Below the pieces are notes generated by a model, which was not told where the DNA came from, did no database searches, and was given only the letters and a program-made list of their open reading frames with translations. Below, piece after piece: positions 4,789 to 51,536 of a stretch of DNA of 64,000 bases (the first letter of the stretch is position 1; each line of letters starts with the position of its first letter). The DNA comes from Minisyncoccota bacterium (GTDB taxonomy: Bacteria > Patescibacteriota > Minisyncoccia > JAHISW01 > Tagabacteraceae). The stretch covers positions 11,936-75,935 of the forward strand of contig JAQTSC010000002.1 in the NCBI GenBank assembly GCA_028711505.1. The letters run 5' to 3'. The translations under genes were made by a program, and so were the position numbers.

Positions 4789-4889
4789 TTCAACTTAGTT
4801 ATGCTACGTTTAATTGATTCTTCGGGTCAAAATAAAAAATTTTGTTTTTATTCACCCTCATTGTCAATTATAGTCCAAAACGGCGAAAA

Positions 4890-4930: not shown

Positions 4931-4937
4931 ACGCACG

Positions 4938-5582
4938 TTAAATTTTTGTTCCCGCCAAAAAACTTCTGGCAAGTTCAAAAATTTCTTTTCCGTTTGACAC
5001 ATCCGCCTTGATGTCAGGCTCAATACCGCCCAAAAGGCACCTTCTCGTAAGAGGAGAAAAATATTTCATCAAGGATTTATCTCCCGCGGTCTTTTCCCCT
5101 ATTATAACCGCCCTGTGATTGTCCTGAAGCGAAGCGGCAAAAAGTTCCCCCGCGCCGGATGTTTGACGGCTGACTAAAATGATAACCTGGCCGTCAATCT
5201 GAAAATCAATATCTTCTTCCTCAAACTGGAAACTGTCGGCATTTACCGCGCTAAATCCGGATTTATTTTTTATGCTCTCAAATACGACAGTGGCATCCTC
5301 CGGCAAAAACATCCAGGCTGTTCTTAAAGCTTCGCTGTCTTGGCCGCCCGTACAATTCCGCAAATCAAAAATCCACCTTTCGCACCCGACCAAAGAGGCC
5401 CCGATGGAAAAACGCAAAAATTTTTGAGCGAAACCCCTGTCAAAACTCGGAACGGTTATTTTCGCGCATAACGGATCTTCGCAGCGAGCCAGTCCGGCGC
5501 CTGCGCCAAGCAAGAAAAAAAGAAGTATTATAAAAAGGAAAACGGCTGCCAAAACTTTTCCCCGCTTCTTGTTCTGAAACAT
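4938..5582 (-). CDS. S41-family C-terminal processing peptidase, minimal form without PDZ domain
   Basis: Signal/TM N-terminus. S41 core motifs 'DLRNCTGG', 'TSGAGELFAASLQDNHRAVIIGEKTAGDK' (Ser-Lys dyad context). Confidence 0.6.
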   Translation of the reverse strand: MFQNKKRGKVLAAVFLFIILLFFLLGAGAGLARCEDPLCAKITVPSFDRGFAQKFLRFSIGASLVGCERWIFDLRNCTGGQDSEALRTAWMFLPEDATVVFESIKNKSGFSAVNADSFQFEEEDIDFQIDGQVIILVSRQTSGAGELFAASLQDNHRAVIIGEKTAGDKSLMKYFSPLTRRCLLGGIEPDIKADVSNGKEIFELARSFLAGTKI

Positions 5583-5712
5583 AAACCCCTCCTTTTAGTT
5601 TCAGGTTTTTGAGCTGTTTATATGTCAAAAAATGCCTATTATTCTCTGGGCATTTTGGAACAAATTTAACACCAAGTCAAGCAAGAAAAATAAGCCGCGA
5701 GCAGCAAAATTC

Positions 5713-18962: not shown

Positions 18963-20171
18963 TTATACCGCCATCGCGATGTTGTAAATCGGCACCAAAA
19001 CAGAAGCCAGAAGAAGCCCGACACCGACGCCCAAAACAACGGTCATCGCCGGCTCAATAAGACCTATCATTGTTTCAAGAGCGTCGTCCATTTCTCTTTT
19101 ATAGAAACCCGCCAGCGTTTTAAATATAAAATCCAATTTCCCTGTTTCTTCCCCTATTTTTATCATCTGTCCCATAAGAGGCGAAATTTCATGATACCTG
19201 GAAAAACTTTCGGAAATAGTGGCGCCTCCTTTAACCGATTCTATCGTATCTTTTAAAATCGCCCTGTAAATCGGGCTCTCAACCACATCCGATGTTATTT
19301 CCAAAGACCTTATCATGCTCACGCCTCCGGTAATCAAAGTTTCCAGGTTGTCGGCAATACGGGCAAGATAAAGCTTTTGGTATAAAGTTCCAAGATAAGG
19401 AATAGAAAGCTGGAGAGAAGCGACTTTAAGACGGCCATCGGGTGTTTTTGAATATCTCCATAAAAGGAAAACTCCTACTGCCAAAAAAAGGAAGAAAAAA
19501 GCTCCGTAATTTCTCAAAATATCGCTTGTGTACATTACCGCTTTCGTGTAAAGAGGAGCCTCCTGCCCGCTTTCTTTAATAATATCGGTGAGTTTGGGAA
19601 TAACAACAACCATCATTACCACAATTACACCGATAAAAGCGGCAACAACGAAAGCTGGATAGATAAGCGCTTTTTTCGCTTTGCCTATAAGTTCGGCATT
19701 GCGTTCCAGATAATCAGCCAAATGTTTGAAAATTTCATCCAATTTTCCGGATTCTTCCCCTGTCTTCACCATGCTTACGTAAAAATTAGAGAAAACTTTC
19801 GGATATCGCGAAAGCGCTTCCGCGATCCTTGAGCCGCCGCTTATATCCACGACAATGCCATTTAGAACCTCGCGCATAGCAGGATTTTCAATTTCGGCAG
19901 AGAGAAGTTTAAAAGCGCTCAATACTGAAACTTTCGCCTCAAAAAGAGTCGCTATCTGTCTTGAAAGCATCACTATATCTTTTCTTTTCACTTTTTTAAA
20001 AGAAAAAATATCCTTGTCAAAAAAAGGAATCCTGCTTGATTTTGAAACAAGGGAGATTACTATCAGGCCTCTTCTTTGGAGAGAACTTAAGGCGATTTCC
20101 TGGCTTGACGCTTCCAGTTCGCCTTCTTTAATTTCTCCGTTAGGCGTTGTCGCTTTGTAATAAAAAAGCAT
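18963..20171 (-). CDS. pilC: type IV pilus assembly platform protein PilC (GspF family)
   Basis: Two T2SSF-domain repeats with 3 TM segments. 402 aa. Located between pilA and pilT. Confidence 0.9.
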   Translation of the reverse strand: MLFYYKATTPNGEIKEGELEASSQEIALSSLQRRGLIVISLVSKSSRIPFFDKDIFSFKKVKRKDIVMLSRQIATLFEAKVSVLSAFKLLSAEIENPAMREVLNGIVVDISGGSRIAEALSRYPKVFSNFYVSMVKTGEESGKLDEIFKHLADYLERNAELIGKAKKALIYPAFVVAAFIGVIVVMMVVVIPKLTDIIKESGQEAPLYTKAVMYTSDILRNYGAFFFLFLAVGVFLLWRYSKTPDGRLKVASLQLSIPYLGTLYQKLYLARIADNLETLITGGVSMIRSLEITSDVVESPIYRAILKDTIESVKGGATISESFSRYHEISPLMGQMIKIGEETGKLDFIFKTLAGFYKREMDDALETMIGLIEPAMTVVLGVGVGLLLASVLVPIYNIAMAV

Positions 20172-20177
20172 AGAAAA

Positions 20178-21254
20178 TCAAGAATTTAAATCAACGAGCG
20201 CTTTGGGATTTAAAGAAAAAGCAAGCGCGTTGTCCATGCTTATTTCACCGCTTCTCACAAGATTCAAAAGTGAACTATTCAAGCTTATCATCCCTTCTGA
20301 CGAACTCGTTTCTATAACTATATCTATCTCGTGCGTGCGACCTTCGCGTATCAAATTCCGAATCGCCGTGTTTGCTATAAGAAGTTCGTACGCGGGGATA
20401 AGCCCTCCGGAAATCCTCGGCACAAGCCTTTGGGAAAAAATGCCAAGCAAACTTCCCGCAAGCTGCAGGCGAATCTGGTTTTGCTGGTCCGCCTGGAAAG
20501 AATCTATAATTCTGTCCACGGTCTGGCTTGCGTTGTTGGTGTGAAGCGATGAAAAAACCATATGCCCGGTTTCCGCCGCGGTTACGGCAATTGCGATACT
20601 GTCCGGATCTCTCATCTCGCCTATCATTGCCACGTCCACGTCTTGACGGAACATGGCGCGAAGGGCGCGCGGAAAATCTTCCGCGTCAGTCCCCACTTCG
20701 CGCTGATCTATTGTTGATTTGTCTTGTATGAATAAATATTCTATAGGATCTTCAATCGTCACAATATGCTGATTCATTTCATGATTTATTATATCTATCA
20801 TCGCGGCAAGGGTGGTTGATTTACCGTGCCCGGTAGGACCGACTACAAGGAAAAAACCTTGTTGCTTTAAAGCAAATGTCCTTAAAAGATCCGGCACATT
20901 CAGGTCTTCAAGATTTTTTATTTCGGAAGGAATAAAACGCATCGCCAAACCCATGTAGCCTTTCTGCCTGAAAGCGTTACATCTGAAACGAGCTTTATTC
21001 GCGGCATTATACGCGAAATCCAAATCTCCTTTTGCCAAAAGTTCCGTTTTTTGACTTTCTTTTATCATGGAAAAAACGATTCCTTCTATCAATTCCGGCG
21101 TCATCATCGGCTTCTTTACCAAAGGAACCAGTGTTCCGGAAACCCTCACGGTCGGGTGCCTGCCAACGGAAAGATGCAAATCAGACCCGCCTGATTCAAC
21201 GACGGAAGTAACCAAATCATTAATTTCTTTTAAATAATCGATTGAAGGCATCAA
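20178..21254 (-). CDS. pilT: twitching-motility/retraction ATPase PilT
   Basis: PilT-type secretion ATPase: Walker A 'GPTGHGKSTTLAAMI', Asp box, His box. ~358 aa, lacking the PilB N-terminal domains. Confidence 0.9.
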   Translation of the reverse strand: MMPSIDYLKEINDLVTSVVESGGSDLHLSVGRHPTVRVSGTLVPLVKKPMMTPELIEGIVFSMIKESQKTELLAKGDLDFAYNAANKARFRCNAFRQKGYMGLAMRFIPSEIKNLEDLNVPDLLRTFALKQQGFFLVVGPTGHGKSTTLAAMIDIINHEMNQHIVTIEDPIEYLFIQDKSTIDQREVGTDAEDFPRALRAMFRQDVDVAMIGEMRDPDSIAIAVTAAETGHMVFSSLHTNNASQTVDRIIDSFQADQQNQIRLQLAGSLLGIFSQRLVPRISGGLIPAYELLIANTAIRNLIREGRTHEIDIVIETSSSEGMISLNSSLLNLVRSGEISMDNALAFSLNPKALVDLNS

Positions 21255-21323
21255 AATAATTTAAGAAGATAAAATACCGATTATAAAATTACAATTTTAT
21301 ATTTTTGTTCCAAAATTTCCGTT

Positions 21324-21767
21324 TTAAGCTCTCTTCCTCTCCAATACCGACTTGATTTTTTCGACAACTTCAGTGGGCGTAAAATTCGCTTTTACGATGT
21401 AATCCGAAGCGCCAAGCTTTATTCCTTTGTCTATATCGTCTTTTTGCCCAAGATTGCTTAAAATGATTATCGGAAATTTTCCGATAATACCTTCCGTCTT
21501 AAGCGCTTCTAAAAATTCCAGACCGGTCATTTTCGGCATGACAACATCCAAAAGCATGATATCCGGCCGAAATCCGCCTTTTAATTTATTCAGAGCGTCA
21601 TCCGTGCTTTTTGAAGATTCCACACTAAAGCCGGATGATTTGAACTTTACCGAATACATGTCCAAAAGAAAATCATCGTCGTCTAAAAGGAAAACCGTAA
21701 TTACCTTATCCATTGTTTTTTCGGACTCGGGCGAAAGATCGCTTGCGGTTGTGTTTCCTTGAGACAT
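21324..21767 (-). CDS. response regulator receiver-domain protein (CheY-like, stand-alone)
   Basis: REC domain motifs: acidic pocket 'LLDDDD', phospho-acceptor 'LLDVVMP', and 'LSNLG...K'. Confidence 0.8.
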   Translation of the reverse strand: MSQGNTTASDLSPESEKTMDKVITVFLLDDDDFLLDMYSVKFKSSGFSVESSKSTDDALNKLKGGFRPDIMLLDVVMPKMTGLEFLEALKTEGIIGKFPIIILSNLGQKDDIDKGIKLGASDYIVKANFTPTEVVEKIKSVLERKRA

Positions 21768-21801
21768 AATTTTATTTTTGATTAAGAGTGCCGCCGTATC
21801 A

Positions 21802-23511
21802 TCATATTATTTCCCTCAACTGTTCAAGCCCTATGGTGCCGTCTAAAACCTTTAAAATTCCGTCTTGCCTCATTGTTATCATCCCCTGGCTGAATGCTTC
21901 TTTCATTATAGCCGATTCTCCCGGATTTGTTAAAATTATTTTTTCAAGTTCTGGCGTCATCGACATAACTTCAAAAATTCCGATCCTCCCCCTGGTGCCT
22001 CTTGGACACTGCGCGGAAGGCAAGGCTTGATAAATAGTATCGGGGATTTCGACCTTTTCCCTTACTCCGGCAGGCATTTGCTTTATCTCTTCTTCAAGCA
22101 TAGCCCTTACTGTGCCGGAAACTTTTACTCCTTTTTTTGATTCGGGACAAAGAGTCCCGACAAGACGCTGAGAAATTGCCGAAATCAAAGTTGCCGGAAT
22201 AAGAAACGGGTCAACTCCCATATCTATAAGACGCGGAATAACGCCGGTGGCGGTATTCGTGTGAAGCGTTGAGAAAACAAGGTGACCGGTCAAAGCAGAC
22301 TGCACCGCCAGCCGCGCTGTTTCTTTGTCTCGTATCTCGCCAACCATGATTACATCCGGGTCTTGCCTTAAAATTGACCTTAACCCGCTCGCGAAATCAT
22401 AACCGATCTCCGGCCTTACCTGCGATTGGCTCATTCCTTCCAAATTATATTCAATAGGATCTTCCAAGCTCACAGCGTTGCTTTTTTCCTTATCCAAAAG
22501 ATTGAGCATCGCGTAGAGAGTGGTAGTTTTTCCGGAACCGGTGGGACCGGTTATCAAGATCATTCCATAGGGCTTTTCAAGCCCTTCTTTTACCATTTTT
22601 AAATTTCTTCCCAAAAGACCGACTTCTTCCAATTTTTTGAGCCCCTTAGTGGCGTCCAAAATTCTTATCACTATTTTTTCTCCGTAAAAAGTCGGAAAAG
22701 TGGAAACGCGAAAATCAATCCTTTTACCGCCGACGCCCGCCTCAAAACGACCGTCCTGCGGTTTTCTTTTTTCGTCCAATTTCATGTTAGTAAGAATTTT
22801 TATTCTCGCGACAACCGCCTCGTGCACTTTTTTCGGCAAAGTAAGACTGGTGTACAAAACGCCGTCAACCCTGAACCTGACTTTCAGCCGGTCGTAAAGC
22901 GGTTCTATGTGTATATCCGAAGCTCTTCCTTCTATGGCATGCCTTATGATAACGGCAACCATTTTTGTAATCGGCGCCTCTTCGGTGGAAGTGGCCATTT
23001 CTTCCGCCTGTTTTATGTCTTCCGGCAAAGTCTTCTGCGCGATAACCGATTCCAATTCATCAAGAATTTTTACTGTTTCGCCGCCAAGACTTTGATAGCT
23101 ATTCAGGGCGTTTTTCAAATCAGTCGAAGAAATCAGAAACAGCTTGAACGGCATATTCAATTTCGAAGATAAAAACTGAAGAGCTTCTCGGGCCTCCATA
23201 TCGTCCGGATTTACAATCCCCACTTCCATAACTCCCTCTTCAACGCCAAGCGGCGCGAATTTGTAAAAACGAACGGATTCTTCGGGGATATTTTTTATTA
23301 TTTCAAAAGGTAAAGTCAAAGAACCCTCCACTTTTTTTATCGGCAACCCGAAAACTTCGCTTTTTGCCTTAGTTATTTCATCTGCGGAGATATTTCGCTT
23401 AACAAGAATTTCTTCAAGGTCAGCCCCTGTTTCGTCGGCCTCTTTTTTGCTCTTAAAAAGAAGGTCATTGGAAATAATATTATTTTTTACTAAAACTTCT
23501 CCAAAAGTCAT
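21802..23511 (-). CDS. pilB: type IV pilus assembly (extension) ATPase PilB/GspE
   Basis: N-terminal T2SSE_N-like domain, Walker A 'GPTGSGKTTTLYAML', tetra-Cys motif (CPESKKG...C). Confidence 0.9.
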   Translation of the reverse strand: MTFGEVLVKNNIISNDLLFKSKKEADETGADLEEILVKRNISADEITKAKSEVFGLPIKKVEGSLTLPFEIIKNIPEESVRFYKFAPLGVEEGVMEVGIVNPDDMEAREALQFLSSKLNMPFKLFLISSTDLKNALNSYQSLGGETVKILDELESVIAQKTLPEDIKQAEEMATSTEEAPITKMVAVIIRHAIEGRASDIHIEPLYDRLKVRFRVDGVLYTSLTLPKKVHEAVVARIKILTNMKLDEKRKPQDGRFEAGVGGKRIDFRVSTFPTFYGEKIVIRILDATKGLKKLEEVGLLGRNLKMVKEGLEKPYGMILITGPTGSGKTTTLYAMLNLLDKEKSNAVSLEDPIEYNLEGMSQSQVRPEIGYDFASGLRSILRQDPDVIMVGEIRDKETARLAVQSALTGHLVFSTLHTNTATGVIPRLIDMGVDPFLIPATLISAISQRLVGTLCPESKKGVKVSGTVRAMLEEEIKQMPAGVREKVEIPDTIYQALPSAQCPRGTRGRIGIFEVMSMTPELEKIILTNPGESAIMKEAFSQGMITMRQDGILKVLDGTIGLEQLREII

Positions 23512-31534: not shown

Positions 31535-32155
31535 AAAGAATATCAAGCGTCGGTTGAATTGATTTAAAAAGGAAGTATTTCTTTCCAATTAGGAAGCGGC
31601 CATTTTACTTCCACTGTGCTTAAAAGCGTGCATGATTTTCCGTTTGAATCGGTGATTCTTAAGGAGACTTGTTTTGAGCCTTGGCTTAAAAATGTTGTCA
31701 TCGGGCTTTGTTCTACCGAAGTTCCGGGGGAACCGTCTTGGAATTCCCATACGCGTTCAGTGGTGGAAGCTCCTTCGGTGACCGTTGAACTGTCCGTGAA
31801 TTGAACGACATCGTCTTCGTTGGGCTTGAAAGGAAGCCATGTGTAGACAACGGTCGGGTATTCGACGTAATCCGTGGTAAAAGGAGTTCCGACAATCCAA
31901 TCAGAATGGCCGTTATCGTCATTGTAGACTTTGACGCGCCAATTATACGTTTCTCCGTAGACGAGTTTGTCTGATTCGGGGACATCAATGACGAGAACCT
32001 GCTGTGTATTTATCGTGGGGCTTGGATATGAAAGTCCCGATTGGTTTCTGTCCACTTCAGGCGATAGAAAATCGCTGTTGTTGTCTACCTGCATTTGGAA
32101 TCTTGATTCCGCTTTTTCAAGAGGGTCGGAATACGTCCACGAGAAGGTATGGCGG
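31499..32155. repeat. near-identical direct repeat, copy B (3' end of adhesin gene plus terminator; period 2040 bp)
   Basis: Six-frame ORFs 31616..31804 / 33656..33844 and 31713..31988 / 33753..34028 translate identically. Boundaries approximate. Confidence 0.8.
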
Positions 32156-33522
32156 GCTATATTGCAATATGTGTCAGGACCCGGTTCTGATACAGAGAGG
32201 TCAGTAGCTTCCGGATCTCCGCTTGGAGGCACAAAAGAAGTATTAACCTGATATCCCGAGCCGTTGAAATTCACCCATCCGACGACATCTCCTCCCCATG
32301 CCCAGCCTGACCAATTTCCCGAAGTGTCCATAGTGGCGCCGTAGGCGCCGGGATTCTCTCCTTCATCATATGCCGCAGCCGACGGAGTAAAATTTGAAGT
32401 CCAGCGGGCGATGTCTTTGGAAATTCTAAGTTCGTCAATATAACCATTCACTCCCATATCTCCATTCCAATGCGCTCCGACTCTTAAATCATAATTGCCC
32501 GCGTTTATATTAGTTATAGAAGCATCGGTATAATCAGCGCCCAGCTGAACGCCGTTTACATACATGCGAATCTTTGTTCCGTTTCTCACAAGCGCCAAAT
32601 GATACCAAGTGTGAAGCTGCGCGCTGGTCCAATCTCTCGACATTAAAATTACACTTCCGCTTTTATCGTAAGTGAAGTATAGCGTTCCGTCAGCGTGCCT
32701 CCATAAATTCCAGCCATCCGTGTCTGCCGTTCCCCTGCCTCCTCTTCCGACAAAATTTTGATGAGTATTTATTGAATTTAGATACACCCAAAAATCAACG
32801 GTAAAGTCTCCGCTAAAATCCCAATCGGAACTGTTGGGAGTAGAAAGATAATCTCCGCTGCCGTCAAAAGCGGCGCTGTATCCTCCGAATTTGCTCTGGC
32901 TGGAACTTCTCGCGACATTTCCGTTTGGCGTCATCACATGGGTGAAGGCCGAACTATTCGTCAACCCCATATCATCCATATGCAAAAGCAATTTCGCATA
33001 GCTGTCATTACCTCCAATGCCTCCGCCTCCTGCGGAAGGGTCTCTTAAACTAATCCATCCGTCCCAGCCTCCGCCGTAAGAAAGAGCTCTCGCCCAGCCT
33101 TCTATGGAAAGATTCTCATCTCCTATATCGGCCGGAGAATCAACTCTGGCATCGCAAACGCCCGATGGACAGCCTGAGAGATCAGCCGCGTTAAAAGTTA
33201 TCCATCCGATATTTTCGGACCAGGCAAAACCGGAAAAAATACCAGTGTCCAAATTAAGATTCACTCCGTAGCTGGAGGTTCCGCCTCCGGTCAAATTGTT
33301 AAAACTTATCCATCCGATATTTTCGGACCAGGCGAAACCGGTGGTATTTTGCGCGCTTCCGGCTTCTGCAGGCTCCCAATTCCGCAAAAACATCACGGCG
33401 GAAAAAATAAAAACAACGGAGATTAAAACATTTATTAAAAAACCTAATTTTTCGGATGCCGATTTTTTTATTATGGAAAGATTCATTGTCTTTATTTTAC
33501 GCCAGAAAACGATCAACGGCAA
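31564..33522 (-). CDS. large secreted/anchored adhesin-like protein with repeated 'AWSENIGWISFN' motifs, LamG/ConA-like lectin domain insertion, and C-terminal PKD-like domain (copy B)
   Basis: N-terminal signal-anchor. Tandem 'GFAWSENIGWI(S/T)FN' repeats. Central ~230 aa with a LamG-like pattern (DFTVDFWV...WYHLALVRNG...MYVNGV...GYIDELRI). C-terminal 'WEFQDGSPGT...' PKD-like beta-sandwich. Confidence 0.55.
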   Translation of the reverse strand: MPLIVFWRKIKTMNLSIIKKSASEKLGFLINVLISVVFIFSAVMFLRNWEPAEAGSAQNTTGFAWSENIGWISFNNLTGGGTSSYGVNLNLDTGIFSGFAWSENIGWITFNAADLSGCPSGVCDARVDSPADIGDENLSIEGWARALSYGGGWDGWISLRDPSAGGGGIGGNDSYAKLLLHMDDMGLTNSSAFTHVMTPNGNVARSSSQSKFGGYSAAFDGSGDYLSTPNSSDWDFSGDFTVDFWVYLNSINTHQNFVGRGGRGTADTDGWNLWRHADGTLYFTYDKSGSVILMSRDWTSAQLHTWYHLALVRNGTKIRMYVNGVQLGADYTDASITNINAGNYDLRVGAHWNGDMGVNGYIDELRISKDIARWTSNFTPSAAAYDEGENPGAYGATMDTSGNWSGWAWGGDVVGWVNFNGSGYQVNTSFVPPSGDPEATDLSVSEPGPDTYCNIARHTFSWTYSDPLEKAESRFQMQVDNNSDFLSPEVDRNQSGLSYPSPTINTQQVLVIDVPESDKLVYGETYNWRVKVYNDDNGHSDWIVGTPFTTDYVEYPTVVYTWLPFKPNEDDVVQFTDSSTVTEGASTTERVWEFQDGSPGTSVEQSPMTTFLSQGSKQVSLRITDSNGKSCTLLSTVEVKWPLPNWKEILPF

Positions 33523-33535
33523 ACCTGTTGTGGAT

Positions 33536-33574
33536 AATAAAACATTCCGACCGCCGATAAGCGCAGCCGGAATG
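33536..33574 (-). terminator. intrinsic terminator after adhesin-like gene copy A (duplicate of 31496..31534 with one stem mismatch)
   Basis: CATTCCGaCC...GGCCGGAATG hairpin plus a T-rich tract on the minus strand. Confidence 0.4.
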
Positions 33575-34195
33575 AAAGAATATCAAGCGTCGGTTGAATT
33601 GATTTAAAAAGGAAGTATTTCTTTCCAATTAGGAAGCGGCCATTTTACTTCCACTGTGCTTAAAAGCGTGCATGATTTTCCGTTTGAATCGGTGATTCTT
33701 AAGGAGACTTGTTTTGAGCCTTGGCTTAAAAATGTTGTCATCGGGCTTTGTTCTACCGAAGTTCCGGGGGAACCGTCTTGGAATTCCCATACGCGTTCAG
33801 TGGTGGAAGCTCCTTCGGTGACCGTTGAACTGTCCGTGAATTGAACGACATCGTCTTCGTTGGGCTTGAAAGGAAGCCATGTGTAGACAACGGTCGGGTA
33901 TTCGACGTAATCCGTGGTAAAAGGAGTTCCGACAATCCAATCAGAATGGCCGTTATCGTCATTGTAGACTTTGACGCGCCAATTATACGTTTCTCCGTAG
34001 ACGAGTTTGTCTGATTCGGGGACATCAATGACGAGAACCTGCTGTGTATTTATCGTGGGGCTTGGATATGAAAGTCCCGATTGGTTTCTGTCCACTTCAG
34101 GCGATAGAAAATCGCTGTTGTTGTCTACCTGCATTTGGAATCTTGATTCCGCTTTTTCAAGAGGGTCGGAATACGTCCACGAGAAGGTATGGCGG
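33539..34195. repeat. near-identical direct repeat, copy A
   Basis: See copy B. The 5' ends of the two genes (about 33060-33540 vs 34420-34900) are also similar but more diverged. Confidence 0.8.
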
Positions 34196-34878
34196 GCGGT
34201 ATTGCAGTACGTATCGGAGCTTGGCGAGGAAACCGTAAGATCGATAGCTTTCGGATTGATATCCACCGGCACAAAAGAAGTATTAACCTGATATCCCGAG
34301 CCGTTGAAATTCACCCACCCGACGACATCTCCTCCCCATGCCCAGCCTGACCAATTTCCCGAAGTGTCCATAGTGGTGCCGTAGGCCTCTCCGCTATCTT
34401 TCAAACTAATCCATCCGTCCCAGCCTCCGCCGTAAGAAAGAGCTTTCGCCCAGCCTTCTATGGCAACTGTTTCCTTTCCTATTTTATTTGGCAAAGCGAC
34501 TCTGGCATCGCAAACGCCCGATGGACAGCCTGCGAGATCAGCCGCGTTAAAACTTATCCATCCGATATTTTCGGACCAGGCAAAACCGGAAAAAATACCG
34601 GTGTCCAAATTAAGATTCACTCCGTAATCGGAAGTGCCGCCTCCGGTCAAATTATTAAAACTTATCCATCCGATATTTTCGGACCAAGCGAAACCGGTGG
34701 TATTTTGCATATTTCCAGCGTTTACGGATTTCGAATTTAGAAGAAACATCGCTCCCGAAAAAATAATCGCAACGGAGATTAAAACATTTATTGAAAAACT
34801 AAATTTTTCGGATGCCGATTTTTTTATTATGGAAAGATTCATTGTCTTTATTTTACGCCAGAAAACGGTCAACGGCAA
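33604..34878 (-). CDS. adhesin-like paralog lacking the LamG-like insertion (copy A)
   Basis: The first ~150 aa and the C-terminal ~230 aa are near-identical to 31564..33522. The lectin-like middle region is absent. Confidence 0.55.
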   Translation of the reverse strand: MPLTVFWRKIKTMNLSIIKKSASEKFSFSINVLISVAIIFSGAMFLLNSKSVNAGNMQNTTGFAWSENIGWISFNNLTGGGTSDYGVNLNLDTGIFSGFAWSENIGWISFNAADLAGCPSGVCDARVALPNKIGKETVAIEGWAKALSYGGGWDGWISLKDSGEAYGTTMDTSGNWSGWAWGGDVVGWVNFNGSGYQVNTSFVPVDINPKAIDLTVSSPSSDTYCNTARHTFSWTYSDPLEKAESRFQMQVDNNSDFLSPEVDRNQSGLSYPSPTINTQQVLVIDVPESDKLVYGETYNWRVKVYNDDNGHSDWIVGTPFTTDYVEYPTVVYTWLPFKPNEDDVVQFTDSSTVTEGASTTERVWEFQDGSPGTSVEQSPMTTFLSQGSKQVSLRITDSNGKSCTLLSTVEVKWPLPNWKEILPF

Positions 34879-40520: not shown

Positions 40521-40593
40521 TAATATTTTTGGATGTGCCAGGACTCGAACCTGGAACCATCGAGGTATAAGCTCGAAGCTCTGCCAATTGAGC
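40521..40593 (-). tRNA. tRNA-Ile with UAU anticodon (by manual fold)
   Basis: Reverse complement folds as GGATGTG-TA-GCTC-AATTGGCA-GAGC-T-TCGAG-CTTATAC-CTCGA-TGGTT-CCAGG-TTCGAGT-CCTGG-CACATCC-A. Confidence 0.7.
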
Positions 40594-40611
40594 TACACAT
40601 CCCCCCTTATT

Positions 40612-44889: not shown

Positions 44890-45155
44890 CCCTTCAATAA
44901 ACTCAGGGTAAACAAAATGAAACTTTTGGCGCTCCAACCACGCTGGAAATATTTAGGATTTCACATACTTCGAAAGTTCAAACATCGTTACACCCCCTGC
45001 ACAAGGAATGTATGGCCTTGATAATAGCGACAGCCGATTTTCGTTGAAAATAAATAATCTTTTGTTGGCCAAACAGAAGTCTTAACTAAATCTTGACTTT
45101 TTTGTTTGGCAATGTATAATGGTAGAGGAAAATCAAACCTTGAAAGGAGAAAAAA

Positions 45156-45383
45156 ATGTCAGAAGGAGCCATAATTTTTGCGTTGGCAATATGTCTTTTG
45201 ATAGGATTTCCTTTATGCCTCTTTTTTTGGCCGCGGCTTATGAATAAATGCCCGAGGTGCGGAAGCAGATTAACTTACACCAAAATTTCAACAGTTCCTG
45301 CTCCAGGCTTAGAAACACAGTTTTTGGGAATCCGCCAGAAACAAATTGAACATCTTTTTTGTATAAAAAGGCATGGACAGTAG
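45156..45383 (+). CDS. hypothetical small membrane protein with CxxC motif
   Basis: 75-aa ORF with a strong SD (AAAGGAGAAAAAAATG), an N-terminal TM, and 'CPRCG'. Confidence 0.35.
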   Translation: MSEGAIIFALAICLLIGFPLCLFFWPRLMNKCPRCGSRLTYTKISTVPAPGLETQFLGIRQKQIEHLFCIKRHGQ

Positions 45384-45750: not shown

Positions 45751-46068
45751 ATGCTAAACATGATAAGGAAACGGCTAGGAGCAAAGAAAGAAGAAAATTT
45801 GCCCGCGATGGAAACAAAAGAAAAAACATTTGAACAGATGAAAGTTGTGTGCAGAACGGCGAAAAATTTTATTGATGCCTTGGAAGAGCTTGAGGAATTG
45901 CATTTTTGCAAATGCGGAGAGCTGTTTCTCTGCCGCCACAAAAAGTGTCCGGAATGCGGAGAACCGAATCCGAAATACAGACCTTTCGCTGGCAAAGACC
46001 AGGAAAGGGCGGAAAACATGGCTGAAGCGGCGCTCGATAAACTTCGCGCCGCATGCAAAGCTTTATAG
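45751..46068 (+). CDS. hypothetical small zinc-ribbon-like protein
   Basis: Strong SD (AAAAAGGAGGGGCTATG). 'CKCGELFLCRHKKCPECGEP' has 4-6 Cys in a ribbon-like arrangement. Followed by a terminator. Confidence 0.45.
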   Translation: MLNMIRKRLGAKKEENLPAMETKEKTFEQMKVVCRTAKNFIDALEELEELHFCKCGELFLCRHKKCPECGEPNPKYRPFAGKDQERAENMAEAALDKLRAACKAL

Positions 46069-46097
46069 TCTTACCTCCACGGATACCACAAGCAGGA

Positions 46098-46137
46098 GCC
46101 CCGAAACGGAACTTATCCGAAGGGGCTTCTTTTTTTA
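46098..46137 (+). terminator. intrinsic terminator
   Basis: GCCCCgaaacggaacttatccgaaGGGGC followed by TTCTTTTTTT. Confidence 0.6.
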
Positions 46138-46258: not shown

Positions 46259-46286
46259 TTGACTTTTTTAGCGGATATGATATAAT
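46259..46286 (+). promoter_or_regulatory. candidate strong sigma70-type promoter with extended -10
   Basis: TTGACT -35, 16-nt spacer, TGaTATAAT extended -10. ~65 nt upstream of the ATG at 46353, which has an AGGAGG SD. Confidence 0.45.
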
Positions 46287-46352
46287 TGGGTCAGGAAAAT
46301 AAAGGAGTTTTTTGAAAAAATATAAATCTCAAAAACGAGGAGGTATTGAATT

Positions 46353-47708
46353 ATGAAATCAAGGATATGGAATAAACTGATTTCTTTTCTTCTGCGGATG
46401 GGATCAATAACATGGAAATGGCCCTCCTTTTTTCGAAAAAGAAAAGAGGATGATAAAGAAAGGGAAAAAGAAAATGACAAAGAGAAAAAATTAAGTATTG
46501 GAATAATTTCTTTTCTTCTGCGGATGGGATCTTTCTACCTTATCTGGAGGGGATGCCAAATAATCCCCGTGGATTCGATTTTCAAAGGAACATCTTACAG
46601 CGGCGGGTATATTGAATTAATTTTTGTCGTAGCAATAACATGGTTTCTCCCTTGCGGAATTTTTTACGGAGCCTGGAGAAATCTGCCCGCTGAACCGCCA
46701 ACAGCAGGACTTATCACCATTTTTGGCATGAGAACTTGCTTATTTACGGTAAACGGCTGGACTTTTTTACCCTTATACCCTTTTCTCTTCGGCATAATCG
46801 CCTTTGACATGAGAGTCCGCGCCGAACAATTGCCTGAACAGGACGTAAGAACTCCGGATCAAGCCGAATCAAAAATTACTGGAGTAATTTCCTGGAAACC
46901 CGACCCGAAAAATCTTCGAAATTTTCAAAACGTGGGCGGAGCTAAAGGAGCGGTAGAAAATTTGTTTAACATATGGACAAGCACTATAAGACAATGGGCC
47001 GCTTCGCCCGAAGAAGGTCCTGCGGGTTATATGGAACTTCTGGCCGCCCAATGGGAAGCGGTAAACAGGCTTCTTAAAAAAATGGCTCCTATGTCTTTAT
47101 GCAAGATTGATTCAGAAATTCCCACGATAGCTCTTTTCAGATATTTTGCCGAGCCCCGAAAACCGCTTACGGAAAATCTGAAAAAACTCTACTCAAGTGA
47201 CGGAAAAAGCGAGGATTGGGCTAAGCTTGAAGAAAAGCTGAAAGAAAGCAAAAAAGAAGATCTGATAAAAAAACAGGTAGAAAACCGGGAAGAAGATATT
47301 GAGGCAGTCAGACAAGGCAAAGGAAATTTCCGGAAACCAGAGCTGGGAATAATTATTACACAGCTGGATATCGGAAAAGTCGTCCCGTTTGGAGAACTCG
47401 CAAAATCAATGGAAAAAGAGGCGATGGAACAGAGAGAAAGGGCTGCTGAAAAAGTCCAGGTATTGAATGTCAACGAGAGAAGCAGTGAGCTTATGGAAGC
47501 AGTGGTAAAAGACGAGAACGGAAAAACAAAAACAATACCCACCGGCAGAACAAGAAAACAAGCTGACGAGATTGTCATGATCCAGCAAAAAAAGATTCAA
47601 AAATCTGTCAAAGAAGTTCAAATCTCTTTAACGCCGGAAAGCCAAGACGCAATTTCTGCAATCGTTGGCGGAATCGTTAGAGCGGTAAAGGAGGTAAAAA
47701 ATGGCTGA
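46353..47708 (+). CDS. hypothetical membrane protein with duplicated N-terminal amphipathic segment and long C-terminal coiled-coil
   Basis: 'ISFLLRMGS' encoded twice (nt 46376-46401 and 46507-46532), hydrophobic segments at residues ~80-150, and a Lys/Glu-rich C-terminal half. Confidence 0.5.
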   Translation: MKSRIWNKLISFLLRMGSITWKWPSFFRKRKEDDKEREKENDKEKKLSIGIISFLLRMGSFYLIWRGCQIIPVDSIFKGTSYSGGYIELIFVVAITWFLPCGIFYGAWRNLPAEPPTAGLITIFGMRTCLFTVNGWTFLPLYPFLFGIIAFDMRVRAEQLPEQDVRTPDQAESKITGVISWKPDPKNLRNFQNVGGAKGAVENLFNIWTSTIRQWAASPEEGPAGYMELLAAQWEAVNRLLKKMAPMSLCKIDSEIPTIALFRYFAEPRKPLTENLKKLYSSDGKSEDWAKLEEKLKESKKEDLIKKQVENREEDIEAVRQGKGNFRKPELGIIITQLDIGKVVPFGELAKSMEKEAMEQRERAAEKVQVLNVNERSSELMEAVVKDENGKTKTIPTGRTRKQADEIVMIQQKKIQKSVKEVQISLTPESQDAISAIVGGIVRAVKEVKNG

Positions 47709-48189
47709 TAAAAAAGAAAAGCCGGAAGAGAAACCGGTAGTTATAGGAAAGCTTCCCTCTTCGCTTTGGTGGTTTATAGTTTTAATTTGCCTTGCTGTGT
47801 TCTTTCAAAGGGCATACTTAATCCATGCAGCAAGAACAGGAGAAGAAAAAAGGAAAGAGAAAACACAAGCTGTCATTCCTCATTTCGCCAGCACCGGTGT
47901 CTTGAAATGGAAACATTCCGGTAAAATAAATCCGGAGCAACGACGCGAGGCGAACATAACGGTTGCCGCAAATCGGACGCGAACCGACATGATTCTGGAA
48001 CGCAAAGGGGTGGGCAGATTTGAGGGAAAATCCCTTGACGGAATCGTGTATGAAGGAAGTTGGACGGGAGCGGACCGGCATGGCGGCAAGTTTAAACTGG
48101 TCTTTGATTCTCCAAACCATGCCATAGGCTGGCATGAAGACTCGGAGACAAAAGAAAAAATCCCCACTACCTTTTCACTTAATGGATAG
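47701..48189 (+). CDS. hypothetical membrane-anchored protein
   Basis: ATG overlaps the stop of the upstream gene (ATGGCTGA), indicating translational coupling. Single TM. Confidence 0.5.
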   Translation: MADKKEKPEEKPVVIGKLPSSLWWFIVLICLAVFFQRAYLIHAARTGEEKRKEKTQAVIPHFASTGVLKWKHSGKINPEQRREANITVAANRTRTDMILERKGVGRFEGKSLDGIVYEGSWTGADRHGGKFKLVFDSPNHAIGWHEDSETKEKIPTTFSLNG

Positions 48190-48204
48190 CGAGGAGAAAA
48201 ACCC

Positions 48205-48239
48205 AAAAGGGGTTCGTGTTAAACACGAACCCCTTTTTC
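48205..48239. terminator. bidirectional intrinsic terminator between convergent operons
   Basis: AAAAGGGGTTCGTG-ttaaa-CACGAACCCCTTTTT: a perfect 10-bp stem flanked by an A-run and a T-run. Confidence 0.65.
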
Positions 48240-48264: not shown

Positions 48265-48717
48265 TCACCAATCGGAATAATCCATGTAAGTGTCTGAATT
48301 ATCCTCTTCGGGCGGATTCCAATAATAGTAATCGGCGGAATAATCTCCCGTTGCGTCATATCCGTAATCGTAATAAGTGTCTGAAGGGCTTTGCCCGAAA
48401 ACCGTGTCCTGTAAAATCCGGATAAGCCCCCAAAAAGAAAGCAAGACAAAAAATCCTATAAGCCCGTATATCAGAAAATTTTTAGCCGATTTTCTTTTTT
48501 CGGGATTATTCGCCGTGGTGATGTATCTGAGAACTCCGAAAATAAAAACCACAGACGCGACAAGCCATAAAAGCTGTATTATCTGAAGCACGATGTCCGT
48601 GCCTCTTTCAAAAACTTCCTTAACAGAAGCTGCTGCGGCAAAAAAAGGCAAAAGAAAACAAACAGCGCACAAAGGCAAAAATACGGAGTACGATTTTATG
48701 TTTTTCCCAAAGGACAT
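48265..48717 (-). CDS. small secreted two-TM protein, VirB2/TrbC-like paralog 5, with Tyr/Asp-rich C-terminal tail
   Basis: Signal peptide 'MSFGKNIKSYSVFLPLCAVCFLLPFFAAAAS', TM1, charged loop 'NNPEKRKSAKN', and TM2 'LIYGLIGFFVLLSFWGLI'. Tail 'DTYYDYGYDATGDYSADYYYW'. The longer listed ORF start overlaps the upstream gene. Confidence 0.5.
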   Translation of the reverse strand: MSFGKNIKSYSVFLPLCAVCFLLPFFAAAASVKEVFERGTDIVLQIIQLLWLVASVVFIFGVLRYITTANNPEKRKSAKNFLIYGLIGFFVLLSFWGLIRILQDTVFGQSPSDTYYDYGYDATGDYSADYYYWNPPEEDNSDTYMDYSDW

Positions 48718-48956
48718 CAAAATGAATCGACAAAATTTTGAATAATCATAAGCACGCCCTGACTGGAAATCATCAAAGCCATTCCAATTAAACCCCACGC
48801 CAGATGCTGTTTCCCTTTTTTTCTCTTCTCTTCGTTATCGGCCGAATAAATCATTTCAACCACGCCATAGATAAAAACCATAATAGCCACCGCGAAAATA
48901 AAAATCACGAATGGCTGTATGGCTTCTTCTATAATGGTGTTTATAACTTTATCCAT
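48717..48956 (-). CDS. small two-TM protein, VirB2/TrbC-like paralog 4 (no signal peptide)
   Basis: TM1 'FVIFIFAVAIMVFIYGVV', loop 'NEEKRKKGKQH', and TM2 'LAWGLIGMALMIS'. Confidence 0.45.
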   Translation of the reverse strand: MDKVINTIIEEAIQPFVIFIFAVAIMVFIYGVVEMIYSADNEEKRKKGKQHLAWGLIGMALMISSQGVLMIIQNFVDSF

Positions 48957-48974
48957 TATATGAGTTTTCGGTTA

Positions 48975-49328
48975 TTAGAGGCTAATGTCAGGAAAATTCG
49001 GACTGCCTCCTGTCTGGATACCGAAAGTATCGGCAAAAATCTGGATTATTCCCCAGAAAGCGACCATAACGAAAATTCCGATAAGTCCGTAGATGATAAG
49101 CCCTCTTGCTTTCTTCTCATTCGCTTCATCTCCTCCGGCAGTAACGTATTTCACTATGCCCCACAAAAACACCGCGACGGCGAGAAGCATGAAAAGCGGA
49201 ATAATCCCGTTCGCCAAACTTTTAAGCGTATCAAGAATAGATTCAAGGTCTGAGGCGGCGAAAGCGCAAAGCGGCGCAAATCCCACAATTGCCGGAATAA
49301 ACGGAGAAAATCTGGATAATTTTTTCAT
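48975..49328 (-). CDS. small secreted two-TM protein, VirB2/TrbC-like paralog 3
   Basis: Signal peptide ending AFAAS, TM1 'IIPLFMLLAVAVFLWGIV', loop 'GGDEANEKKARG', and TM2 'LIIYGLIGIFVMVAFWGII'. Confidence 0.5.
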   Translation of the reverse strand: MKKLSRFSPFIPAIVGFAPLCAFAASDLESILDTLKSLANGIIPLFMLLAVAVFLWGIVKYVTAGGDEANEKKARGLIIYGLIGIFVMVAFWGIIQIFADTFGIQTGGSPNFPDISL

Positions 49329-49398
49329 ATTATGATTTTTAATTGATAATTTTAATGATTCTTTTTTTCGACCTTATTTTAAAATTTGACTGCGATTA

Positions 49399-49782
49399 TT
49401 AAAGTTTTTGCGCGAAATCCGATACTGCCGCCGCTATAGCGTAAGCGCCCAAAAGCACCGCCGCGCCGATTACCGCGTAATAAAAAGTGCTTCTAGCCTT
49501 TTTAAGCTGCTCAGTATCGCCGCGCGCCGTGGTAAAAAGAAACCCGGACCAAATTACCATAAGGGCCGCGATTATACTTCCTATTTTAGCGACAAGCGCG
49601 GTAATTTTTTTGACAATGACTGAAAAATCAGAAGTGCCTATGGGGTTTTCAAGCCCGGTACCCCCGCTACTTTCGCCAAAACCGACAGCCTCGCAAACAG
49701 CAAATACCGGCAGAAAAATCAAAACCGCCAGCAAAAACGCCGGAAACAAGCAGTTCATATTTTTATACAAGAATACTTTCAT
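49399..49782 (-). CDS. small secreted two-TM protein, VirB2/TrbC-like paralog 2
   Basis: Long signal peptide, TM1 'IGSIIAALMVIWSGFLF', loop 'TARGDTEQLKKARS', and TM2 'TFYYAVIGAAVLLGAYAIA'. Confidence 0.5.
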   Translation of the reverse strand: MKVFLYKNMNCLFPAFLLAVLIFLPVFAVCEAVGFGESSGGTGLENPIGTSDFSVIVKKITALVAKIGSIIAALMVIWSGFLFTTARGDTEQLKKARSTFYYAVIGAAVLLGAYAIAAAVSDFAQKL

Positions 49783-49804
49783 CTTCTCTTAAAATAATTT
49801 TAAC

Positions 49805-50215
49805 CTAAAGCGAGCAGGAAGGAAACTGGTTCCACGATTTATACAGACTGAACCCGGGGTCAAGCAGAAAACCAAGTATCGTATTGATTACGGCGTAAGC
49901 CGCGAAAGCGATAACAATGCCGGTTGCCGTAAATTTAAAAATGTTTTTCCCTTTCTCAATTTGGCTTGAATTATCTCCTCCCGTCATAAAAATAATTCCC
50001 GCCGCGGCAAAAGACAAAACGGACAAAGGCAAAACTATATTAAAAGCAAGAAATTTTACAAGATTGCCCGCAAGCTCGGCAAACTTGCAAAAATCGCACG
50101 CAGGCTGTCCCGCGCCGCCGCAAGGCACTATCTTTGCCGCTCCAGCCAAAAGAGGAAACATCAAGAAAAAAACAGTCAAGATGTTTACTCCCAAAATTTT
50201 TATATTTCTCCCCAT
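49805..50215 (-). CDS. small secreted two-TM protein, VirB2/TrbC-like paralog 1 (Cys-rich N-terminal segment); start taken at internal Met
   Basis: Signal peptide, 'CGGAGQPACDFC', TM1 'LAFNIVLPLSVLSFAAAGIIF', loop 'GGDNSSQIEKGKN', and TM2 'TATGIVIAFAAYAVI'. Confidence 0.45.
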   Translation of the reverse strand: MGRNIKILGVNILTVFFLMFPLLAGAAKIVPCGGAGQPACDFCKFAELAGNLVKFLAFNIVLPLSVLSFAAAGIIFMTGGDNSSQIEKGKNIFKFTATGIVIAFAAYAVINTILGFLLDPGFSLYKSWNQFPSCSL

Positions 50216-50228
50216 TGCTCCTCTATGT

Positions 50229-51536
50229 TTATTCCAATTTATCCATCTCTTCCGCCAAAAGGATTTTGGCGTCGCGGATTGCCGAAGAAACATTTTTCTT
50301 TCCGCTCACCACCGAATCAACCATGTTTTTAAAAATCAAAGAAACTGCCGAAGGATCGGGTTCAAGCCACGACTTTGAACGTATGGCTGCTTTGTAAAAT
50401 GTTTCCATAAAAGGATTATCCTCAACTCCTTGTCCTGAACTTAAAAGGGCTCTTTTAACCGGAGGCAAATAAAGATTCTCTTCTATCATCTTTTGAACTT
50501 CGTCCGAGCTGAAAACCGAAGCCGCCAAAAAGGCCTTGGAAGCGTTTGCGGTCGATTTCGAAACCGCCATAACGTAAACACGGCCGAAAGTAGACTGGGT
50601 TGCCGAATCTTTGACCTGCGGGACTTGATAAACATCAAAATTCAGATGGGGGTTTTTACGGACAATTTCCCTCGCTTCGCTCGCGTATCCAAAATACACG
50701 GCAAGTTTTCCTGACACAAAAAAATCAATGTCCTCCGGCAGCGCCCTGTTCCATGAATAAGAAATCTTTGTCGGATTTGAAAAACTCGTGAAAAAATTCA
50801 AAGCGCTCGCCGCGGGGTCAACCGACGAGTCCCCTCTCTCTCCGAAAGAAAGCTTGTTTGTTTCCGGATCAATAATTTTATTCCCTGTCTGGAGAAGAAG
50901 GAGCGAAAAAACTTCTTTGGCGTTTTTTATGTTGGAAAATTCGCCCATTGCTCCGCCCGACTTCAAAATATTTCCCGACTCGTCTTTTTCCGTCATGGCT
51001 CGCGATTGATTTAAAAATCCGTCCCAGGTCGCCGACGGGTTCGCTATGGCGGCTTTTGAAAAAATATCTTTGTTCCAATACAAAACCAGGGGATCAACAC
51101 AAAAAGGCATTCCGGCAATGCCGTCTTTTTTCATAAAAAGAAATCCGCTGTCTACAAAAGTATCCCGAAACGTCCTTTCGCTTAAAGATTCATAGGGTAT
51201 AAAAAATGCCTTGCTTCCGTGCTTCAAAAGAAGGTCCTGAGGCAAAAACCATAAATCGGGGCCGGTGCCCGAAGCTATGGCATTAACAAGTTCGGTTTCG
51301 TAAGTGGCAGGGTCTTTTTCATAATATTTTATGGAAAAAGACTTTTGGTTCTCGGAATTGACCGCGTCAATTATCCTGCCCCACGAATCTTCGGAAAACA
51401 CTCCCCACATAGTAAGGTCTGCGGGGGGTTCCGAACTTTGGCCGGGAAGCCACGGTAAAATTCCCGACAAAACGAGAAAAGATAAAAGAACCAAAGCTCC
51501 TATTGCGCCGTAAAGCGCTATTTGAAATTTAGACAT
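50229..51536 (-). CDS. extracellular solute-binding protein (ABC transporter SBP family 1-like), orphan
   Basis: N-terminal signal-anchor and a ~400-aa periplasmic-binding-protein type II-like sequence. No adjacent permease or ATPase genes. Confidence 0.6.
   Translation of the reverse strand: MSKFQIALYGAIGALVLLSFLVLSGILPWLPGQSSEPPADLTMWGVFSEDSWGRIIDAVNSENQKSFSIKYYEKDPATYETELVNAIASGTGPDLWFLPQDLLLKHGSKAFFIPYESLSERTFRDTFVDSGFLFMKKDGIAGMPFCVDPLVLYWNKDIFSKAAIANPSATWDGFLNQSRAMTEKDESGNILKSGGAMGEFSNIKNAKEVFSLLLLQTGNKIIDPETNKLSFGERGDSSVDPAASALNFFTSFSNPTKISYSWNRALPEDIDFFVSGKLAVYFGYASEAREIVRKNPHLNFDVYQVPQVKDSATQSTFGRVYVMAVSKSTANASKAFLAASVFSSDEVQKMIEENLYLPPVKRALLSSGQGVEDNPFMETFYKAAIRSKSWLEPDPSAVSLIFKNMVDSVVSGKKNVSSAIRDAKILLAEEMDKLE

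Follow-up and report, generated by a model that had tools for sequence, protein, structure and literature searches.

A two-gene operon in a 64,000-nt stretch of the Patescibacterial contig JAQTSC010000002.1 (the whole stretch is referred to as the window) encodes a divergent SPFH membrane scaffold, gene A, followed by a small membrane-anchored protein, gene B. The operon converges on an array of genes for VirB2-like pilins of the type IV secretion system (T4SS). Gene neighbourhoods were compared in one GTDB locus, 25 metagenome loci and eight contigs encoding members of the A family (cited below by their L numbers), and T4SS genes adjoined gene A in nearly all lineages that were informative. 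On balance, this gene order makes it probable that A and B constitute an SPFH membrane-microdomain scaffold and its partner, dedicated to the Patescibacterial T4SS or to its pilin pool. A previous sequence-only reading had proposed a functionally linked, undescribed module at this site. The recurrent gene linkage agrees with the first part of that proposal, whereas gene A and the array are both of kinds already known.

Genes A and B constitute a translationally coupled operon with strong expression signals, among them a promoter of its own and a terminator that acts in both directions (Table 1). The near-consensus promoter claimed earlier is present, with TTGACT, a 16-nt spacer and (TG)ATATAAT matching 11 of 12 positions and including an extended −10 TG. 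Both strands of the window contain five sites with at least 11 of 12 matches, compared to 1.9 expected from shuffled sequences. Promoters of this quality were also located 50-135 nt 5′ of the A homologues in about eight further lineages (L003, L005, L010, L012, L016, L019/L020/L026, L021 and L024). The AGGAGG Shine-Dalgarno sequence claimed for the 451-amino-acid (aa) gene was likewise found, and AGGAGG or GGAG occupies the equivalent position in most homologous loci. As had been stated, the stop of gene A overlaps the start of gene B, the overlap amounting to 8 nt (ATGGCTGA). Both genes are annotated at NCBI as 'hypothetical protein' (PHC85_01525 and PHC85_01530) in a Candidatus Pacebacteria metagenome-assembled genome, and a Logan contig of run SRR22315508 independently yielded the same two products. 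The 5′ leader of gene A contains a possible upstream open reading frame (ORF; 46312-46356, +) of 14 codons (MKKYKSQKRGGIEL), which would begin with TTG 4 nt after an AGGAG and end with a TGA that overlaps the start codon of gene A (ATGA); it is doubtful, given so short a spacing and its TTG start codon.

The terminator was correctly recognized in the sequence-only reading as bidirectional and shared with the convergent array, but its stem is longer than the 10 bp assigned to it. A G+C-rich core of 12 bp (GGGGTTCGTGTT/AACACGAACCCC) is extended by A4/T4 arms to 16 bp, with a folding energy of −24.5 kcal/mol and T-runs on both strands. Between the stop codons of B and the nearest pilin gene, a GC hairpin with an A-run and a T-run was present in eight of the nine lineages examined.

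Gene A had been regarded as a protein of unknown function, yet it is clearly a scaffold of the SPFH/Band-7 (stomatin/HflK/prohibitin) type. Its residues 119-216 match Pfam PF01145 with 27.1 bits (gathering cut-off 23.6, E 5e-6), and the same model was matched individually by 59 of the 71 aligned family members, with a best E of 3e-15. A family profile searched against PDB sequences retrieved human stomatin (E 2.5e-10), prohibitin (1e-3) and also QmcA and HflK/C. The AlphaFold model of the monomer, built with the 71-sequence alignment, reached a mean local confidence (pLDDT) of 88.2 and a predicted template-modelling score (pTM) of 0.71. It comprises a transmembrane (TM) helix at residues 85-107, a beta sheet (108-183), helices (185-320), strands (326-345), a further helix (348-381), a beta hairpin (382-396) and C-terminal helices, in other words the SPFH alpha/beta fold followed by a long coiled-coil helix resembling CC1 of other SPFH proteins. 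The first 50 matches of the model in a Foldseek search of the PDB were all SPFH cage proteins (prohibitin, HflK/C, stomatin, QmcA-YbbJ, erlin, flotillin and major vault protein).

An exhaustive HMMER search of 1.84 billion cluster representatives revealed 347 relatives of gene A at E ≤1e-3, 62 of them at E ≤1e-30, which align over residues ~90-445. All family members with a named source are Patescibacteria, and one is already titled 'SPFH domain-containing protein'. No relatives were detected by tblastn in 72,556 plasmids or 50,697 phages, and none on viral contigs; together with the lack of a PADLOC match, this led us to reject gene A as an anti-phage defence, phage or plasmid gene. The 50-aa protein P0154, 'representative' of the 90% cluster of gene A, is unrelated and a clustering artefact.

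Within the SPFH proteins, gene A belongs to a distinct Patescibacterial subfamily that bears an insertion. The profile-to-stomatin alignment splits in two, with approximately 125 residues of gene A (~186-310) standing against approximately 37 in stomatin. This insertion is helical and confidently modelled (pLDDT ≥90 for helices 185-320) and bears several of the most conserved residues of the family (G195, R213, W215, G222-P223, P257-T258 and W289), and is thus regarded as subfamily-defining. The C-terminal region aligns with the coiled-coil walls of the HflK/C, prohibitin, stomatin and QmcA cages and is 69% identical in a partial homologue on L001. Regions of this kind allow SPFH proteins to form rings or cages, and the product of gene A may do the same. 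A published regression relates CC1 length to subunit number in SPFH proteins (PMC12624060); extrapolated to the CC1 of about 34 residues in gene A, it would yield approximately 16 subunits, the same as in stomatin.

The N-terminal membrane anchor consists of a weak first hydrophobic helix (47-70, with two Arg) and a strong second one (86-107), followed by the sequence RNLPAEPP. In the homologues, one to five hydrophobic helices precede a conserved G-L-(R/K)-(R/K)-I-P-A-x-P-P motif. A basic N-terminal head (P0014) or a K/R-rich loop (P0016, P0017) precedes the last pair of TM helices and GL(R/K)(R/K) follows the last helix, while family members with a single helix begin directly with it. The charge distribution in these multi-TM homologues favours a cytoplasmic SPFH domain. 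In gene A it is thus most likely on the cytoplasmic side, an orientation shared with stomatin, flotillin and QmcA but not with HflK/C.

The convergent array comprises five small ORFs coding for two-TM proteins. Four of them score above the PF18895 cut-off (31.8-39.6 bits vs 26.6); the fifth reaches 24.9 bits with PF18895 and 24.0 bits with TrbC (cut-off 27.9). What had been read as a putative filament-subunit array thus belongs to the known VirB2-like T4SS pilin family PF18895, of which Patescibacterial arrays have been published (PMC12102498, PMC10633639). Patescibacterial pilin arrays contain 2-11 genes that are highly divergent paralogues (PMC12102498). The T4SS and its VirB2-like pilins are essential for epibiotic growth in S. 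epibionticum, the sole Patescibacterium tested (PMC10633639). Upstream of the pilins, on their strand, the window contains a solute-binding-type protein (SBP) gene, a methyltransferase gene and gyrA. The SBP gene probably shares the operon of the pilins, and it is conserved at this position before them in L004, L007, L010, L018, L019/L020, L029, L030, L032 and L033.

Two features of the array were observed in passing. The stop codon of the SBP gene overlaps the longest-ORF start of the first pilin in the window, no ABC permease or ATPase gene is adjacent, and co-transcription of an SBP with T4SS pilins would be an unusual arrangement. The pilin ORF nearest to the terminator (48265-48798) encodes a C-terminal Tyr/Asp-rich tail (…SPSDTYYDYGYDATGDYSADYYYWNPPEEDNSDTYMDYSDW; 48265-48400), which the four other paralogues lack and in which a 21-nt unit occurs twice, at 48278 and 48365, with 81% identity.

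Conservation of the neighbourhood in related genomes was the test put forward in the sequence-only reading itself, and the order of A, B, terminator and convergent pilin array recurs in 14 lineages. In these, gene A is followed by a B-like gene and the hairpin, and from the other side by three to six PF18895 pilin genes with the SBP gene before them, often preceded in turn by the methyltransferase gene and gyrA. GyrA shares only 51-58% identity with that of the window in the six loci measured, and gene A shares 24-39% with the window protein in the loci compared pairwise. What lies upstream of A differs from lineage to lineage, and the B/pilin side stays the same.

A second subclade of the A family (L012, L024, L031 and L025) occurs without the array. 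Here, gene A stands head-to-head with a PrgI gene (PF12666) in four of four lineages, a TraC-like gene comes after PrgI in L012, L024 and L031, and a VirB4-type ATPase (P-loop_TraG/AAA_10/DUF87) is encoded in L012 and L024, the two loci whose fetched DNA reaches that far. L024 and L031 further encode a conserved protein of ~510-610 aa that converges from the other side. The position of this subclade beside PrgI, TraC-like and VirB4 genes indicates the T4SS as a whole, not the pilins alone, as the linked system. Linkage to T4SS genes is recurrent, being found in 18 of the 19 informative lineages (14 with the pilin array and four with PrgI). Only L021 has neither context.

Several of these loci showed peculiarities of their own. 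In L021, a 297-aa ORF just 5′ of the A homologue (73-966, +) has a weak Band_7 match (E 0.008) and would represent another SPFH-like paralogue, which recalls pairs of the HflK/C type. The GyrA homologue of L010 (5748-9614, −) has 1288 aa in place of the usual ~825 aa and may thus contain an intein or some other large insertion. In L031 (581-2151, −), prgI is separated from the TraC-like gene by a gene for a 23S rRNA intervening-sequence protein (PF05635), and a PDDEXK_3 gene comes after the TraC-like one, suggesting that selfish or defence-type genes inserted into this T4SS cluster. The string of PrgI, TraC-like and VirB4 genes in L024 ends with a 1218-aa protein (2585-6241, −) whose N-terminus matches the pilin hidden Markov model built here, with no match in Pfam; it may be a pilin-domain fusion.

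The A family adjoins Patescibacterial T4SS genes almost exclusively, be it pilin arrays or the PrgI/TraC-like/VirB4 genes, and this points to a scaffold dedicated to the T4SS. In the proposed mechanism, the protein encoded by gene A would be anchored in the membrane by its N-terminal hydrophobic hairpin, with the SPFH domain toward the cytoplasm and the C-terminal coiled coil forming a ring or cage that encloses a patch of membrane. The product of gene B, made in step with A, would act as a small single-pass membrane partner and contact A via its juxtamembrane N-terminus. The assembly might then corral or stabilise a membrane pool of pilin subunits, or organise the platform on which the T4SS is assembled. 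A more detailed version is conceivable but should be taken as tentative. In this version, the A family would be a hitherto unrecognised, lineage-specific structural accessory of the T4SS, in which the conserved helical insertion of the cage binds the short basic cytoplasmic loops of the pilins, or VirB4/PrgI, and the cage maintains a protected membrane reservoir that supplies the machine with pilin paralogues. Gene B would be a single-pass adaptor that docks on the cage with its conserved N-terminus and exposes a hypervariable C-terminal part to the exterior, the latter evolving in concert with the host surface and the variable pilins.

A number of observations weigh against a T4SS-dedicated role. 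The link is drawn from gene neighbourhood only, and A-B and the pilins are convergent and hence not co-transcribed. VirB4 is absent among the ten large ORFs scanned in the 64-kb window, and profile comparisons demonstrated no homology among the B-like genes beyond close relatives. The T4SS cluster that was studied experimentally in S. epibionticum (SEML1_0006-0019) lacks an SPFH gene, so the A family is not a universal core part of the T4SS. SPFH proteins are not required for T4SS function in Agrobacterium (PMC8656257). Moreover, the conserved block of the array type includes housekeeping genes (the methyltransferase gene and gyrA, in some loci infB-rbfA and ftsH), and part of the A-pilin adjacency may therefore be inherited synteny and not selected linkage.

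Carried further, the latter point leads to an alternative that we consider possible, though not probable: A-B may be a general module of an SPFH protein and its partner for stress tolerance or the quality control of membrane proteins, comparable to QmcA-YbbJ, FloA-NfeD or HflK/C-FtsH, with the pilin adjacency inherited as synteny around gyrA. The conserved block indeed extends to the methyltransferase gene, gyrA and a lactamase_B-type gene, and to infB-rbfA in the window, L029 and L030. A separate promoter and terminator for A-B would suit such a module, as would the presence of ftsH within 1-4 kb of A, seen both in the window and in L029, given that SPFH proteins classically partner FtsH (PMC2636767, PMC8656257). 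However, ftsH proximity is limited to two to three loci, and the flank 5′ of A varies while the B/pilin side stays constant. Synteny around gyrA also does not explain why a different A subclade, in a different setting, again adjoins PrgI/TraC-like/VirB4 genes in four lineages.

Gene B has a short charged N-terminus, an LPSSLWW motif, a single TM helix (~22-35) and a C-terminal part of ~100 aa, which was judged beta-rich by eye and contains a MORN-like YEGSW motif. Searches for its family gave no match in Pfam, NCBIfam, PHROGs, PADLOC or PDB sequences. With a gene B profile, the PDB sequences yielded only MORN-repeat proteins at E ~1, which reflects the one YEGxW motif, and an assignment as MORN protein was rejected on account of this E-value. 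The sole homologue among 5.8 billion proteins is P0002 (42% identity); its gene, on a contig of 1 kb, likewise shares 8 nt with the end of an A homologue. A jackhmmer match in L024 (17380-18000) was discarded as a spurious TM match.

By position, the partner is far more widespread. A B-like ORF of 121-196 aa follows gene A in all sufficiently long loci except L022, which has only a doubtful Arg-rich ORF 39 nt 3′ of A; in every lineage in which such a gene was found, the gap to A is −23 to +15 nt. These ORFs share a short polar N-terminus, often with an [AV]PKWxW-type motif, one TM helix, a linker and a part of ~90-100 residues that appears beta-rich by eye. The links between the positional counterparts are weak, at 14-16 bits, and driven by the N-terminal motif and the TM helix. 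Gene B is therefore a fast-evolving positional partner of gene A. Only its juxtamembrane N-terminus ([AV]PKWxW-like motif and TM helix) recurs across several lineages, and the C-terminal part changes very rapidly in evolution.

A reading of gene B as a short and strongly divergent member of the NfeD family, with an OB fold in its C-terminal domain, is unlikely; it would turn the pair into a canonical SPFH-NfeD operon. SPFH genes do pair with small membrane partners of the NfeD type (PMC8656257, PMC2636767); such pairs are widespread, and NfeD proteins can diverge extremely, YuaF and PH0471 sharing 21% identity (PMC2636767). Like an nfeD gene, gene B shares an operon with an SPFH gene, to which it is translationally coupled, and its product is small, membrane-anchored and, by eye, beta-rich. 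However, the NfeD domain was not recognizable at the sequence level: gene B lacks a Pfam PF01957 match even at E ≤1, and no NfeD chain was among the PDB matches of the B profile at E ≤10. NfeD proteins usually have several TM helices, whereas gene B has one, and nfeD is more often located 5′ of the SPFH gene, whereas gene B is located 3′. In Agrobacterium Atu3772/3773, the SPFH gene precedes its partner in the same order as in A-B.

The sequence-only reading had also emphasized an exact in-frame 26-nt repeat within gene A. The repeat is real, although the positions 46376 and 46507 given for it were off by 4 and 1 nt. As a notable feature of the operon it did not hold up, for it is not conserved and sits in an N-terminal stretch without counterpart in any homologue. 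The two copies are spaced by 126 nt, or 42 codons, and exceed chance by far (none in 100 shuffles; ~5e-7 chance pairs expected). The 100-nt segment between them has a G+C content of 29%, compared to 42% for gene A, and encodes the K/E-rich sequence ITWKWPSFFRKRKEDDKEREKENDKEKKLSIGI. Tandem duplication was ruled out as the origin, because outside the 26-mer the two 126-nt units are identical at 33% of positions, which is the random level. In the HMMER scan, residues 1-23 were aligned by no homologue and most alignments did not begin before residue 85. Among the 150 homologues listed, the great majority show no conservation of the N-terminal ~85 residues, and AlphaFold confidence is low across the inter-repeat region (block means 43-60).

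Most simply, these features are explained by a recent, lineage-specific in-frame insertion of 42 codons, made up of the 100-nt segment and one repeat copy and bracketed by the duplicated 26-mer; without one of the 126-nt units, the N-terminus would look like that of a typical family member. The repeat is probably incidental and has no part in the proposed mechanism. A function as a recombination switch deleting 42 codons in frame or as an RNA structure regulating translation is very improbable: its exactness, its frame, its excess over chance, the family-typical N-terminus left by such a deletion and the pairing of a purine-rich segment (46434-46447) with either copy (14 nt at 86%) would fit, but the region is neither conserved nor confidently modelled, the pairing segments are low-complexity purine and pyrimidine runs, and a variant without the insert did not come to light, though no search was aimed at one.

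The surroundings of the operon contain further signals and genes. An imperfect hairpin, AGCCCC...GGGGCT followed by T7, is tentatively taken as the terminator of the small zinc-ribbon gene upstream, which would insulate A-B from upstream transcription. A second near-consensus promoter (TTGACT-16-TATAAT, 11/12; 45093-45120, +) precedes a 75-aa ORF (45156-45383, +) with a weak zinc-ribbon match to PF12760 below the cut-off. A Cys-rich 105-aa ORF (CxxC…CxxC; 45751-46068, +) lies just 5′ of the A-B operon and, like the 75-aa ORF, has no assigned family. The T2SSE/T2SSF genes at 18-23.5 kb were considered as T4SS genes and rejected, as they are type IV pilus genes; this cluster (18963-23511, −) encodes T2SSF (PilC-like), a 358-aa T2SSE (PilT-like) and a 569-aa T2SSE with MshEN (PilB-like). 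Two large surface proteins with Laminin_G_3/PKD domains are encoded at 31564-34878. ARAGORN predicted a tRNA-Ile with the anticodon TAT (UAU) at 40530-40602 (−). Few bacteria have a UAU tRNA-Ile; as a rule they decode AUA with a CAU tRNA modified by lysidine.

Table 1 Features of the A-B operon and its surroundings (positions in the window)
Feature	Position	Strand	Basis or remark
Imperfect hairpin followed by T7	46097..46136	+	read from the sequence; not flagged by the consensus scan (loop >8 nt)
Sigma-70-type promoter TTGACT-16-TGATATAAT	46259..46286	+	11/12 match, extended −10
Shine-Dalgarno AGGAGG of gene A	46338..46343	+	9 nt 5′ of the ATG at 46353
Gene A	46353..47708	+	451 aa; NCBI MDD5032778.1, annotated 'hypothetical protein'
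26-nt repeat, copy 1	46380..46405	+	encodes ISFLLRMGS, residues 10-18
Inter-repeat segment, 100 nt	46406..46505	+	AT-rich
26-nt repeat, copy 2	46506..46531	+	encodes ISFLLRMGS, residues 52-60; start of the weak first hydrophobic helix
Gene A membrane anchor, residues 47-107	46491..46673	+	hydropathy (helices 47-65, weak, and 89-107), family N-termini, AlphaFold helices 33-70 and 85-107
Gene A SPFH domain, residues 108-345	46674..47387	+	strands 108-183 and 326-345, helices between
Family-specific helical insertion in the SPFH domain, residues ~186-310	46908..47282	+	profile-to-stomatin alignment, AlphaFold
Gene A C-terminal region, putatively for oligomerisation	47394..47705	+	CC1-like helix 348-381, beta hairpin 382-396, helices 401-411 and 428-450 (AlphaFold)
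Shine-Dalgarno AAGGAGG of gene B	47688..47694	+	within the 3′ end of gene A, 6 nt before the ATG of gene B
Gene B	47701..48189	+	162 aa
Bidirectional intrinsic terminator common to A-B and the convergent pilin operon	48205..48237	.	perfect 16-bp stem, A-run left, T-run right
Five VirB2-like T4SS pilin paralogues (PF18895)	48265..50293	-	two also match TrbC PF04956 below cut-off
SBP_bac_1/8 solute-binding-type protein, 435 aa	50229..51536	-	N-terminal hydrophobic anchor; directly upstream of the pilins

SPFH proteins, operons of an SPFH gene and a partner, and pilin arrays of candidate phyla radiation (CPR) bacteria are already known. In full-text searches on SPFH-type proteins in Patescibacteria, CPR and Saccharibacteria, we found no paper describing the A subfamily or its linkage to the T4SS. 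The main texts of two studies on the Patescibacterial T4SS do not mention SPFH among the associated genes (PMC12102498, PMC10633639), and the only SPFH entry in the tables of the latter is a canonical slipin located elsewhere in the genome and unlinked (PMC10633639). The function of bacterial SPFH proteins and the content that they enclose are a long-standing question; for most of them no client is evident, and their loss by knock-out has little phenotypic effect. The genome-reduced Patescibacteria possess a distinct subfamily that gene order connects with one specific machine, the T4SS with its VirB2-like pilins. If the link is functional, it would provide a defined client for an SPFH cage and add a new conserved part to the poorly understood CPR T4SS, one that published surveys relying on known T4SS profiles would miss. 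If it is only synteny, two 'hypothetical proteins' still gain an annotation, as an SPFH scaffold with a helical insertion and as a fast-evolving single-pass partner.

Among the known systems, stomatin and QmcA (YbbK), including the QmcA-YbbJ cage (PDB 8z5g; stomatin 9oh9), resemble gene A in the N-terminal anchor, the SPFH domain, the long CC1 and the C-terminal cap elements. Their SPFH domain is cytoplasmic, as it probably is in gene A, and both QmcA-YbbJ and A-B are two-gene operons with a small membrane protein. On the other hand, they share only 12-17% identity with gene A, which has ~90 extra residues as family-conserved helices of the SPFH domain and a beta hairpin after CC1; gene B has one TM helix and lacks the NfeD signature, and the context of A-B consists of T4SS genes where QmcA-YbbJ has none. 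HflK/HflC-FtsH has the SPFH cage architecture in common with gene A, and an ftsH gene is located upstream of A, at a distance of 4 kb in the window and of 1 kb in L029. However, A-B has one SPFH gene in place of a K/C pair, gene B has no SPFH match, HflK/C is periplasmic whereas gene A is predicted to be cytoplasmic, and the adjacency of ftsH to A is not conserved.

With the Patescibacterial T4SS (PMC12102498, PMC10633639), the window shares five PF18895 genes of the published array type, and the other A subclade adjoins PrgI, TraC-like and VirB4 genes, its published core. The window differs in that its array stands without VirB4 among the large ORFs scanned and that A-B lies on the opposite strand with signals of its own. 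SPFH scaffolds have been connected to secretion machines in Staphylococcus aureus (FloA and the type VII secretion system), in Helicobacter pylori (HP0248 and the Cag T4SS) and in Agrobacterium, where the T4SS and the type VI secretion system are found in detergent-resistant membranes (PMC8656257). The association is physiological in these cases and the genes are unlinked; A-B presents the reverse, a tight and recurrent gene linkage. Common to both would be an SPFH scaffold functionally tied to a specialised membrane secretion machine, as is proposed for gene A.

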